Source: Escherichia coli (GTDB lineage Bacteria > Pseudomonadota > Gammaproteobacteria > Enterobacterales > Enterobacteriaceae). Taken from it: a DNA stretch of 64,000 nt. The notes under the pieces are model-generated. The model was not told the DNA's origin, did not search any database, and worked only from the letters and a program-made list of their open reading frames with translations. This document shows positions 767 through 4,742 of the stretch, piece after piece (the first letter of the stretch is position 1; each line of letters starts with the position of its first letter). The DNA lies in NCBI RefSeq assembly GCF_048403405.1, contig NZ_CP183129.1, one strand, 5' to 3'. The position numbers were made by a program, and so were the translations under genes.

Positions 767-941
767 TAAAACATTATTCATGTAATCTTCTGTTTTGTTG
801 CCGGAATTATTTTTGTGGATGAGTTAACGTAATGAAAATAAGGTGCATTTATTATTTATTCTTATCCTGATATTAAAATAATTTATGTTTTATTTAATGT
901 TGCGTTGTTGTTTTTACCGAATTAAAGAGGCAGTAACACCG

Positions 942-2534
942 ATGTTACCGTGGTTTCGTAAATCGCTTTCCCGGAAAGCGGAAGAGAAAACATTGCGTGT
1001 TTCCCCGGGAAACACGCAGGAAAGGCCATTATTTATCCGTGACAGTGACGGCTTTTATTTACCGCAGGCAGCTGACGTATTGCTGACCACACCGCAGCGG
1101 CAAAACTGGTTACAGCAAATCAGCCGGGTGGTAGCGTTACCGGATAACCAGTACCGGGCACTTTGCCTGTCTCCTTTGCAGACGCTGGCAGAACGACTTC
1201 AGTGTGTGCCGGCATCAAAAACCGGGAAATATGCCGGCGAAGGGGGATTGCTGGATTTAACGCTGAATACGACAGCCTGGTGTATGCGGATGTCCCAGAA
1301 AGAGATGCTGCCCCGCGGGCTTCCGTCGGAAGAGCAGAGCCGTCAGTTCAGCGCCTGGAATGTGTGTGTTTTTTATACCGGACTGTTTTACTGGTTACCG
1401 TTAACGGCACAGTTTGAGGGACAACTGAACAGCCTGTCGGCGTGGCAGCCGGGGATGAGTGCGCCCACCGTACCGTATCGTTTTCGCTTTCATGAGCCGG
1501 TGCCGGATATGACGCATTTTCGCCGGACGACGGGGGCCATGATGGCTTTCCGGCTATTACCGGAGAAGGTAATCCACTGGTTGTCGGGTACACCAAAGGC
1601 GCTTCAGGCGTTGTCTGACGTGGTGACCGAGCCGGTAAACGGTGATAATGATTTACAGCGTGTGCTGAATGAGGCTCTGGCTGCGTTCCCCGCCGGTGCA
1701 TTGCCGGCATTTTCTTCCGTTGTTTCTATGTCAGCGCCTGATGCTTCGTCTTCAGTGCTATCAGGGCAGCCGGAGAATGATATCGCGTCATTGGCGCCTG
1801 CTGAATTGGCGCAAAAGCCACAACCTGAAACTCCGTCTGTAACATCTGTATTGCCTCCGGAGTCTGTTACTTCAGAAAAAACAGAGAACGGAATTCACTG
1901 CGATATACCGCTAATGGTAGTTGCAGAAGCAGAAGGTGCGGTTGTCCATGGGGCACTTGATTCTGCTGATGAAAAAACTGTCTCAGATATGTCTCCTCCG
2001 TTATCTGAGGATATGAAATATGCACTTGAATTATCAGGTTTAATGCCGGAAATCTTATCTGATACTCAGACGGGCAATCGTGATGAGAAGGATGAACAGC
2101 GCGAAAACTGTCTGAGTATAAAAAATGAAGGAGAGGCTTTCTGGGCGTGGTTTAAGTCCGGATTATTGGGCGGAAAACTGGCAATAAATACGCCGGATGC
2201 GAAGGTTCACTGTGTCATGGAGTATTTGTTTTGCCAGAGTCCGGCTGTTTTTTATCAGTACATACAGGAGGCGGGTAAAAATCCGGATGATATCGGCCAT
2301 ATTATTTCTTCTTTTGAATCCCTTAAATTGCACCGGATTATTCGTCATGATACCCGACAAACAGGGCATTTCAGGGCTCGAATTTATGGTGAAAAACTGA
2401 ATCCGCTGAGTGATAACAAAACATTAATTACGTTATCCCATAAAAAAATCAATGGTTACATGATTAAAGGACGTCAGATTTTTGGCATGAATATGCCGGA
2501 GGAATCATTGTTTATTCGTATTGTCGGAAGTTAA
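942..2534 (+). CDS. Hypothetical ~530-aa protein: N-terminal domain, Ser/Pro/acidic linker, Cys/His-rich C-terminal domain; function unknown
   Basis: Long ORF (track 885-2534); the ATG at 942 has AAAGAGG upstream. Ends 15 nt before the recombinase start, suggesting co-transcription. Confidence 0.6.
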   Translation: MLPWFRKSLSRKAEEKTLRVSPGNTQERPLFIRDSDGFYLPQAADVLLTTPQRQNWLQQISRVVALPDNQYRALCLSPLQTLAERLQCVPASKTGKYAGEGGLLDLTLNTTAWCMRMSQKEMLPRGLPSEEQSRQFSAWNVCVFYTGLFYWLPLTAQFEGQLNSLSAWQPGMSAPTVPYRFRFHEPVPDMTHFRRTTGAMMAFRLLPEKVIHWLSGTPKALQALSDVVTEPVNGDNDLQRVLNEALAAFPAGALPAFSSVVSMSAPDASSSVLSGQPENDIASLAPAELAQKPQPETPSVTSVLPPESVTSEKTENGIHCDIPLMVVAEAEGAVVHGALDSADEKTVSDMSPPLSEDMKYALELSGLMPEILSDTQTGNRDEKDEQRENCLSIKNEGEAFWAWFKSGLLGGKLAINTPDAKVHCVMEYLFCQSPAVFYQYIQEAGKNPDDIGHIISSFESLKLHRIIRHDTRQTGHFRARIYGEKLNPLSDNKTLITLSHKKINGYMIKGRQIFGMNMPEESLFIRIVGS

Positions 2535-2549
2535 AAGCAGGAGGTGTTT

Positions 2550-3620
2550 ATGAAAGATAATCACAGTTCTGATGAACATCAGCAGAAAGTGGATGTATGG
2601 GAGCAAATGCTGAGTAATTACTTTTACAATAAAGTATTACGGCCGGATACGGAGAAAACATACCGTAAGATGGTACGTCTTTTTCTGCGTTATTGCGGAG
2701 TTTGTGAAAATGCGTTACCGCTACCGGATGAAGTGACACATGAGCATGTGCTGAGATGGCGAAGAAATGAGCTGAATATTCAGAAAGTCCGGGAACGGAC
2801 ATGGAACACAAAAACCAGGCATATGCAGTCTCTGTATAATTATTGGATCAAAAAAGGGATTGTTTCACTTAAAGAAAACCCGTTCTCAGAAACACAAATT
2901 GAACCGGGTGAAAAACAGAAAAAAGTCTATACACAATCACAACTGAGAACGATTTATCGTATTCTGGAACAATTTCAGCAACAGGAAAATATGCTGCCAC
3001 CTGATCAGGCTCACTTTCAGGCATGTGCGGTTTATCCCACTCGATTCTGGTTTGCTGTGCTGGAAACGCTGAGGCTGACGGCTATTCGTTTTAACCAGCT
3101 GATTAACCTGCATATTGGCGATCTGGATTTTGAGGAGTGTACGATCACATTGCGCAGTGAAAGCAGTAAAAATCACCGGGAATATCAGATTGCTTTTGTT
3201 CAGCCACTACGTTGTTTACTGGCGCCCTTGGTTGAGGAAATGCGTTGTCACGGGGCGGATAAAAACGATATTTTGTTTGATGTTCATCGTCTTTATCATA
3301 AACGACTATCCCGCTCTGAAACTCCACTCAGTCAGACGATACGTTCTTTTTTCCGTCGTTTATCAAAGGAATGTGGATTTCATGTCAGTCCCCATCGTTT
3401 CAGACATACACTGGCGACGACATTAATGAAACATCCTGAACGTAATATGCAATTGACGAAACAGATGTTAGGACACCGTAGTCTCTCTTCAACTATGGAA
3501 TATATTGCTCTGGATGCATACAGTACAGTCAGGATCTTGGAGAATGAGTTAGGTGAGTTTTTAACAATGGGATTAGGTGGTGAACTTACAAGGCTAGCAT
3601 CAAAAAGACAGAGGATGTGA
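2550..3620 (+). CDS. Tyrosine site-specific recombinase (phage-integrase family, XerC/D/Cre-sized, 356 aa)
   Basis: C-terminal catalytic signature HRFRHTLATTL ... LGHRSLSSTMEYI (H-x-x-R and H...Y nucleophile), upstream Arg-containing box (ETLRLTAIRF). AGGAGG lies 5 nt before the ATG at 2550. Adjacent to the tRNA-Phe 3' end. Confidence 0.85.
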   Translation: MKDNHSSDEHQQKVDVWEQMLSNYFYNKVLRPDTEKTYRKMVRLFLRYCGVCENALPLPDEVTHEHVLRWRRNELNIQKVRERTWNTKTRHMQSLYNYWIKKGIVSLKENPFSETQIEPGEKQKKVYTQSQLRTIYRILEQFQQQENMLPPDQAHFQACAVYPTRFWFAVLETLRLTAIRFNQLINLHIGDLDFEECTITLRSESSKNHREYQIAFVQPLRCLLAPLVEEMRCHGADKNDILFDVHRLYHKRLSRSETPLSQTIRSFFRRLSKECGFHVSPHRFRHTLATTLMKHPERNMQLTKQMLGHRSLSSTMEYIALDAYSTVRILENELGEFLTMGLGGELTRLASKRQRM

Positions 3621-3637
3621 TATAAATAAAAAATATT

Positions 3638-3671
3638 TACACAAAGTTGACTATTTTATCAACTTTGTGTA
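3638..3671. repeat. Perfect 13-bp inverted repeat with 8-bp asymmetric spacer (TACACAAAGTTGA-ctatttta-TCAACTTTGTGTA)
   Basis: Read directly; begins 18 nt after the recombinase stop. No T tract follows. Confidence 0.8.
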
Positions 3672-3690
3672 TAAGCTGGATTTGATTGAG

Positions 3691-3715
3691 AAGGGTGTTC
3701 TAGGAAAACACCCTT
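3691..3715. repeat. 9-bp inverted repeat hairpin (AAGGGTGTT-ctaggaa-AACACCCTT)
   Basis: Read directly; lies between the recombinase gene and the tRNA. Confidence 0.6.
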
Positions 3716-3853
3716 ACTTGATAAATCATTGTCAACCACGTGAGAAGTCATGAACGTGATTACAACTGAAATTCAAGTTTTAACCGAGCGTTGGAGATCT
3801 CACTTCCAGCGACCGTGCTAGGGAAACGGTTACACCATTTCCGAAAGGAAAGA

Positions 3854-3929
3854 TGGTGCCCGGACTCGGAATCGAACCAAGGACACGGGGATTTTCAATC
3901 CCCTGCTCTACCGACTGAGCTATCCGGGC
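3854..3929 (-). tRNA. pheV: tRNA-Phe (GAA)
   Basis: Reverse complement matches the E. coli tRNA-Phe sequence over 76 nt including the CCA end; located next to yqgA as pheV is in K-12. Confidence 0.95.
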
Positions 3930-4034
3930 AACGGGGCGCATTAAACCTGATTCGCCTCGTCTCGTCAATCAAATTTCTTCAATTTAGTGCAGACTGCACA
4001 ATCTATCATCACTTTGCCGCTATTGCACGCATTG

Positions 4035-4742
4035 TCAGGCAAACCAGGCGGTCCAGGCGGCGGAAAGCGGCATTGCCAGAAGGAGTGCTGGAAGCATGTT
4101 GACCACCGGGAACATTTTAATGCCACAGATGCGTAATCCGGTTGCCAGCAGCAATAAACCGCCTACGGCGCTGAAGTCTGCCATCATCGACGGTGTGGTC
4201 AGCGGTAATATCAGCGCGGCAGCCCACGCCAGCGTTAACTGGATGATCAGTAATGGAATGCTAATCACCGACACCGCAATACCCAGCGAGCAGGCGAAGA
4301 TCATCGCCGTAAAGAAATCAAGAAATGACTTGGCGATTAAAATACTTGGATCGCCGGTCATCCCTTCGTTCATCGCCCCGAAGATTCCGGTGCCGCTGGC
4401 GCAAAACAGGACAATAATCGCGACAAAATTCTGAATAAAAGATTCATGCGCTGGCTTCTTACGCGAGTGGTGAAACAGATTATGCGCTTTGGCGACCACT
4501 GTATTGACGCCTTTTTCCAGCAGACAAATTTCGCCGATTAATGCTCCGAGTAAGGTTGCTAAAACCATCGCCGGAAGGTTGGCGCATTTCACCACCAGTA
4601 AAATACCAATCCCCAGCGATGCCAGACCAAAAATTGATGTCATGGAGACGCGGATACGTTCCGGTAAGCGTTGGCTAAGGAGTGCGCCGAAAACGCCACC
4701 CAGTAAGACTGCACTTGCGTTGATAAAAGGGCCGATGACCAC
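4035..4742 (-). CDS. yqgA: Inner-membrane protein YqgA (DUF554)
   Basis: 235-aa polytopic membrane ORF recognised as YqgA; conserved position between pheV and speC. Confidence 0.85.

Follow-up and report, generated by a model that had tools for sequence, protein, structure and literature searches.

Comparison of homologous junctions indicates that the hairpin at positions 3691–3715 of the window (the whole 64,000-nucleotide stretch of Escherichia coli DNA that was analysed) is a selected base-paired structure, which most likely acts as a transcription boundary element at the end of an integrated ICE. The best single explanation, held tentatively, is that it serves as an intrinsic terminator or insulator against read-through from tRNA-Phe on the minus strand. 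It immediately follows a conserved outward-facing promoter motif (P_out), and a role on both strands is plausible.

By its gene content, the locus is E. coli pheV carrying an ICEPm1-type ICE of the SPI-7/PAPI-1 family. The order at the junction is traI, int, a 233-bp spacer and tRNA-Phe (Table 1), and the presence of yqgA and speC downstream of tRNA-Phe identifies the locus as pheV. TraI scores 184 bits against TIGR03760 (cut-off 161) and Int matches the ICEPm1-type integrase of Proteus mirabilis at 100% identity, which marks the element as ICEPm1-like. The features of the family are all present: a PFGI-1-class TraI, a XerC/D-like Int beside a tRNA, MPF-G genes and a direct repeat of the tRNA 3' end. 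ICEPm1 itself is reported to be a 92.6-kb element that integrates in tRNA-Phe and has 52-bp direct repeats (PMC11278526). The window segment is 100% identical to E. coli GN02323, where the genes of the element include those for MPF-G-type transfer, an nrp/pks cluster, taaP, dnaB-PI, parB and parA; at its far end 51 bp of the tRNA 3' end are repeated, and parA comes next, encoded on the int strand. The element has taaP, the nrp/pks cargo and the MPF-G transfer genes in common with ICEPm1, SPI-7, YAPI, HAI2 and SGI4, as well as the 51-bp tRNA-Phe repeat and the use of pheV or pheU as a target. It differs from ICEPm1 of P. mirabilis in its host, E. coli, and in lying in tandem with an older pheV pathogenicity island. 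In GN02323 this older island (L085 23129–23400 and beyond) carries a P4-type integrase, hlyCABD and pap.

Table 1. Features of the traI–int–tRNA-Phe junction (window coordinates).
Feature	Position	Strand	Basis or remark
TraI relaxase, MOBH, PFGI-1 class	885–2534	+	Pfam TraI_2, TraI_2_C; TIGR03760
XerC/D-like tyrosine recombinase (Int)	2544–3620	+	Pfam Phage_integrase
T-run AAATATTTTTTATT after 13-bp hairpin	3624–3637	-	Terminator-like pair on minus strand
13-bp inverted repeat	arms 3638–3650 and 3659–3671	.	Repeat finder; encloses P_out hexamers
P_out -35 hexamer TTGACT	3647–3652	+	Family alignment and promoter scan of relatives
P_out -10 hexamer TATAAG	3670–3675	+	17 nt after -35; predicted start ~3680–3685
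Tail after hairpin, 5'-(TT)CTCAATCAAATCCAG	3676–3690	-	U-poor here; TTTTCTCGAT in most relatives
Possible extended helix	3685–3722	+	Flanks TTGAG/CTTGA pair via G.U; family equivalent CGAG/CTTG
Hairpin, arms AAGGGTGTT and AACACCCTT	arms 3691–3699 and 3707–3715; loop 3700–3706	.	Repeat finder, homologues
Attachment-arm conserved block with small inverted repeat	3782–3822	.	Family form CCGCCCGTTAAGG-N8-CCTTAACCAGCGTGC
attR core	3854–3904	-	51 bp of tRNA-Phe 3' end, repeated at far end of element
tRNA-Phe (pheV)	3854–3929	-	Host transcription unit reading into element

The initial annotation described a 9-bp perfect inverted repeat with a 7-nt loop lying between the recombinase gene and the tRNA 3' end. 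Direct reading of the sequence and a repeat finder reproduce this exactly, coordinates included: arms of 9 nt each, 100% complementary, enclose the loop CTAGGAA, four of the nine perfect pairs are G–C and the repeat lies within the 233-bp spacer between the int stop (3620) and tRNA-Phe (3854). The window sequence over 3689–3717 is gaAAGGGTGTTctaggaaAACACCCTTac. A mismatch between G3690 and A3716 bounds the perfect repeat, whereas an RNA helix on the + strand could be lengthened through G.U pairs and one bulge. This extension is tentative, since the outer flanking helix is 71.8% paired across the family with only weak covariation; it would begin close to or at the site where the outward transcript is predicted to start. 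Of 3000 dinucleotide shuffles of the 233-nt spacer, 26 contain a perfect inverted repeat of 9 bp or more with a 3–10 nt loop, and none contains two, the number observed here. A 40-nt segment containing the hairpin folds as RNA with -14.3 kcal/mol on the + strand and -13.9 kcal/mol on the - strand (z of about -4), and as DNA with about -8 kcal/mol. The whole window contains 17 perfect inverted repeats of this kind, compared with 2.2 expected from shuffles (others are at 323–348, 994–1018, 13402–13426, 15748–15780 and 19610–19632, for example), and the majority of the 17 are probably terminators. An Rfam search of 3400–4100 returned the tRNA as its sole match, with no hit over 3691–3715 even at E values up to 1. 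When a covariance model of 42 junctions was searched against the whole ~93-kb element and the window, a single copy was identified (next best E = 0.14), which argues against a multi-site operator or a dual oriT.

The decisive evidence for a non-chance origin of the hairpin is comparative. Among E. coli variants of 92–94% identity the 9-bp and 13-bp stems are both invariant, and the loops read CTAGGAA, CGGCAAA and CTGCAA. A scan by Int alignment using one genome per species gave 80 loci with Int 34–100% identical, from genera including Proteus, Providencia, Xenorhabdus, Photorhabdus, Serratia, Pectobacterium, Brenneria, Erwinia, Pantoea, Klebsiella, Citrobacter, Edwardsiella and Morganella; ARAGORN located a tRNA downstream of int in 48 of the 80, in every case tRNA-Phe on the opposite strand. 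A stem-loop is found at the equivalent site in 42 distinct homologous junctions (Int 37–100% identical), which made up the covariation alignment, and its start is mostly 138–167 nt from the tRNA 3' end. The stem sequence differs among junctions (AAGGGTGTT in the window; ACAGGGCATTT, AAGGATGCCTGTG, GGGAACCTG, AGGGAATCTG, AGGGAGCTTG, AGGGAGTCTG, GGAGGATG and AAGGTGTTTGCTG in relatives), and the centre of 4–8 nt varies in both length and sequence. RNAalifold predicts the helix from the 42 junctions, with double-sided changes in seven of the nine pairs. Paired cells amount to 93.1%, compared with 35–42% when the partner column is slid. The covariation score of 0.658 (0.26 in shuffles) is reached in none of 500 shuffles, a control that overstates the significance because the junction sequences are related; the slid controls and the many distinct pair types are independent of this bias. 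Conservation across homologous junctions, which the initial annotation had named as the check to make, is thus strong, extending from invariant stems in close variants to compensatory changes in relatives with only 37–45% Int identity. The combination of a covarying stem and a varying loop identifies the hairpin as a selected base-paired nucleic acid structure, as opposed to chance or a fixed protein-binding sequence. Directly 5' of the stem the family alignment reads GAT(C/T)GAGAAA and directly 3' (A)TCTTGAG on the + strand; the most divergent members retain only the A-run of the 5' flank.

A sigma-70-like motif, TTGACA-17-TGn-nAnnAT, occupies the + strand between int and the tRNA at 33 of the 38 distinct loci, and a promoter scan also lists it in relatives. 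Its equivalents in two relatives lie at L086 3979–4007 and L047 3482–3510. The scan missed the window copy because its -10 hexamer lacks the usual T at -7. The -10 hexamer ends 14–18 nt before the hairpin stem, a far tighter spacing than that from the hairpin to the tRNA or to the int stop. The 13-bp repeat, which had been linked to the hairpin from the outset, is indeed part of the same module: the -35 and -10 hexamers of this conserved outward motif lie within it. In Xenorhabdus the 13-bp repeat shows compensatory changes (TACATAGAGTTGA/TCAACTCTATGTA); in the E. coli GON1437 lineage the repeat is lost and the promoter motif kept, and across the family a hairpin of this type around the -35 hexamer is not general. 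Of the suggestion of structured recombination or regulatory DNA at the junction, the regulatory part is a fair description; the recombination part is not supported, as it is the pairing and not the sequence that is conserved.

P_out faces outward from the element; in circular forms this direction leads across attP into parA. In the circular forms observed in Salmonella (pSGI4) and Citrobacter (pRHBSTW-00903_3), one strand carries traI, int, the motif, the hairpin, ~150 bp, the tRNA-Phe core, 60–100 bp and parA in that order. parA is likewise the first gene across attP, on the same strand, on the attL side of GN02323 and in pKLC102, where the gene order is unchanged and TTGACA-17-TAATGT precedes a tRNA-Lys core. 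An inverted repeat lies just before the parA start in pSGI4, GTTTGTACGTT-N9-AACGTACAAAC (L086 4270–4301), and in the GN02323 element, TTCTCAC-N14-GTGAGAA (L085 22990–23030, minus strand); the two are alike in position and different in sequence. The junction resembles those of the PAPI-1 soj promoter and ICEclc Pcirc in element family, in the order relaxase, integrase, att and parA/soj, and in that a conserved sigma-70-like motif leaves the int end toward parA across attP. Unlike these promoters, P_out in the window is predicted from sequence and has an atypical -10 hexamer, TATAAG. To our knowledge, this hairpin has not been described for the outward promoters of PAPI-1 or ICEclc. The arrangement in the circular forms agrees with PAPI-1, in which circularisation reportedly joins a promoter at the 3' end to soj (Qiu et al., 2006, as cited in PMC2654960).

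In the tentatively preferred explanation, RNA polymerase leaving the host tRNA-Phe gene would run through the ~140-bp attachment arm into element DNA, where the hairpin and the U-rich stretch beyond it would constitute a factor-independent terminator on the minus strand, positioned at the border between the attachment arm and the transcription signals of the element. The rebuilt tRNA gene would regain a terminator, and tRNA-driven antisense transcription through P_out, int and traI would be prevented. In the window lineage the U-tract is eroded (UUCUCAAUC), so that termination at this hairpin is probably weak, and the 13-bp hairpin with its U-run, 20 nt further on, would likely work in tandem with it. 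The structure and its covariation, its fixed position relative to the -10 hexamer, the U-rich tail of most relatives and the synteny traI–int–P_out–hairpin–attP–parA are features of the sequences themselves; transcription of the region, the strand concerned and the termination event are what we infer.

Several observations point to the minus strand. There the hairpin begins 139 nt downstream of the tRNA-Phe 3' end, occurs once per element and in most loci combines a GC-anchored stem with the tail TTTTCTCGAT; the minus-strand tail has a mean of 4.65 T in 8, compared with 3.58 for the + strand tail. About 70% of junctions have a UUUUCUCG tail on the minus strand, and in these it is the only terminator-like hairpin beyond tRNA-Phe. 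Under a permissive terminator rule, the minus strand between tRNA and int gives a match in 35 of 49 distinct junctions; in 33 of these the match is this hairpin or a positional equivalent of it, and in 31 of the 33 there is no further match. Stem positions that are not Watson–Crick are mostly G.U pairs on the minus strand (17 versus 5 counted by hairpin, 39 versus 5 by cell), although shared phylogeny makes these counts non-independent and the loop-closing pair contributes 16 of the 39 cells. In 29 of the 42 loci the core hairpin folds more stably on the minus strand than on the + strand, but inclusion of 16-nt flanks makes the strands equal, and in the ICEPm1 clade of the window it is the + strand that folds better. 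In the distant relative pKLC102, a terminator-like hairpin with UUUUCUGUUUCU is present on the minus strand in the interval from attP to int. The older neighbouring island of GN02323 has a canonical terminator, AAACGGACCTCC..GGAGGTCCGTTTTT, directly behind its tRNA repeat, showing that the need for one is general.

The hairpin also shares with intrinsic terminators a GC-containing stem of 9–13 bp, a free loop of 4–8 nt, pairing kept by compensatory change and, in most relatives, a UUUUCUCG tail on the tRNA strand, and it is the first such structure downstream of tRNA-Phe. It differs from the tRNA terminators of islands in lying ~140–165 nt beyond the tRNA and not directly behind it, and in the poor U-tract of the window; it differs from usual terminators in that both flanks are more conserved and that it adjoins the start of a convergent promoter motif. 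Evidence against termination comes from the window itself: only four of eight positions in its minus-strand tail, TTCTCAAT, are T, the + strand tail reads TTACTTGA, and the hairpin is called neither by a terminator scan nor by the permissive rule. In the ICEPm1 clade, compensatory change nevertheless maintains the hairpin, which shows selection on the stem even where the U-tract is poor. In addition, the conserved flanks CGAG/CTTG can pair on the + strand only, termination leaves the conserved 5' flank CTCAAG unexplained, and the tight spacing to the -10 hexamer fits a role in the outward transcript at least equally well. Wobble pairs, fold energies and flank pairing thus conflict as indicators of the strand.

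The most serious alternative, possible but rather doubtful, is that the hairpin is a 5'-proximal stem-loop of the P_out transcript that stabilizes or regulates a leader of ~300 nt, with P_out firing toward the tRNA and, after excision, across attP into parA-dnaB-parB. The high conservation of the promoter motif among the distinct loci is consistent with this, as is the 14–18 nt between the -10 hexamer and the stem, which places the beginning of the outer helix at about +1. Pairs that can form in the flanks on the + strand alone (CGAG/CTTG in the family, TTGAG/CTTGA in the window, TTGGG/CCTGA in GON1437) are present, although the outer helix shows little covariation. The clade of the window folds better on the + strand and retains its hairpin despite the poor minus-strand U-tract, but several lineages have recurrent C.A mismatches within the stem on that strand. 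The arrangement of int, motif, hairpin, tRNA core and parA on one strand in the two circular forms, repeated in GN02323 and pKLC102, favours an outward transcript, as does the location of the PAPI-1 soj promoter at the opposite end (cited in PMC2654960); on the other side, the window -10 hexamer has no T at -7 and the + strand leader of pKLC102 is not significantly structured (fold z = -0.76). A leader stem-loop is compatible with a terminator on the opposite strand, and the hairpin may be a dual-use element.

An origin of transfer is an unlikely alternative. The hairpin would then be the relaxase-recognition hairpin of the element, with TraI, encoded 1.1 kb upstream, nicking single-stranded DNA a few nucleotides 5' of it, and the hairpin with its conserved 5' flank would be the oriT recognition element of the SPI-7/ICEPm1/ICEKp2 MOBH (PFGI-1-class) group, a proposal to which equally little probability is attached. 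The minimal oriT of the gonococcal island MOBH relaxase needs an inverted repeat 3' of nic, in which structure matters over sequence, the loop is irrelevant and a few specific adjacent nucleotides are required (PMC6736028). A pattern compatible with this, of a covarying stem, a free loop and a conserved flank, GAT(C/T)GAGA, is seen here with a relaxase of the same superfamily, except that the gonococcal repeat is much larger, with 43–47 nt needed 3' of nic. The flank conservation is explained equally well by the start region of a promoter or by a U-tract, and the most divergent members have no nic-like motif beside their A-run. The single copy per element is consistent with an oriT, and the authors of the ICEKp2 study could not find an oriT for that ICE (PMC6761156). 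traI lies directly upstream of int at every locus with enough upstream sequence; this linkage, however, is inseparable from that of int and att. Most conserved GC-rich hairpins downstream of genes are terminators. We know of no nic site for PFGI-1-class relaxases.

Less likely still is a double-stranded palindrome bound by a dimeric protein, whether as an operator of P_out, a site for an excision-directionality factor or a parS-like ParB site. The hairpin does overlap ~+5 to +35 of the promoter motif, the classic position of an operator, its outer half-sites AGGG...CCCT are fairly conserved and in the circular form it lies ~290 bp upstream of parA. The inner arms, however, change freely while staying complementary, which is a signature of base pairing and not of protein contacts, transition-type (wobble-compatible) mismatches far outnumber others and each element has a single copy. 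ParB-type sites such as bisS are palindromes with a 0–1 nt centre that occur in more than one copy (PMC12409273); a parS/bisS-type site (a palindrome of ~16–23 bp) was rejected on account of the variable 4–8 nt centre, the covarying arms and the single copy. A check by eye against the IHF consensus WATCAANNNNTTR gave no consistent match. The least probable reading, a + strand terminator of int, is rejected: the distance from the int stop to the hairpin is 70 nt here and ~30 nt in most relatives, but the + strand tail (ACTTGATA here, ATCTTGAGG in relatives) has no U-tract, in Xenorhabdus and Photorhabdus the distance to the int stop grows to 120–290 nt while those to the tRNA and the -10 hexamer are kept, and a terminator so close behind a conserved promoter of the same strand would cut short the transcripts of P_out.

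The recombination role first envisaged for the hairpin finds no support, as the hairpin ends 138 bp from the 51-bp crossover repeat (3854–3904) and the conservation of pairing in place of sequence favours a single-stranded RNA or DNA structure over a site for the recombinase or an accessory protein; an accessory role in attP is formally conceivable. The conserved attachment-arm block, 15–60 bp from the tRNA in the family alignment, may be an accessory recombination site. An insertion of ~25 nt specific to the ICEPm1 clade, at 3824–3853, adjoins the tRNA 3' end, and its minus strand base-pairs with the CCA end of the tRNA (GCACCAUCUUUCC...GGAAAUGGUGU). In ICE variants from mouse E. coli (L002 3458–3475, L003 and L004, equivalent to window 3854–3871) the 3' acceptor strand of tRNA-Phe reads CCCGAACTCGG in place of CCCGGACTCGG, indicating that integration rewrites the host tRNA and converts an acceptor-stem G-C pair to G.U. 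A 23-codon open reading frame at 3750–3821 (MNVITTEIQVLTERWRSHFQRPC) was discarded as a gene candidate, since its frame is disrupted by a 1-nt indel in close variants.

The hairpin is most probably a new and well-supported conserved element of a familiar kind; no published description of it was found, in line with the absence of an Rfam match. It overturns no current idea and amounts to a testable annotation, one that provides a covariation-supported non-coding element for a clinically important ICE family (ICEPm1, SGI4, SPI-7, YAPI and HAI2) and narrows the region in which the oriT of the family might be sought; were the oriT reading correct, the signals for nicking, transfer and re-integration would be packed into the ~300-bp int–parA junction beside attP. 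The int–attP–parA junction, hitherto treated as plain spacer, holds an outward promoter motif, a hairpin and conserved arm blocks, an arrangement that suggests insulation of the element from the strong host tRNA promoter and a way in which parA expression could be coupled to excision.
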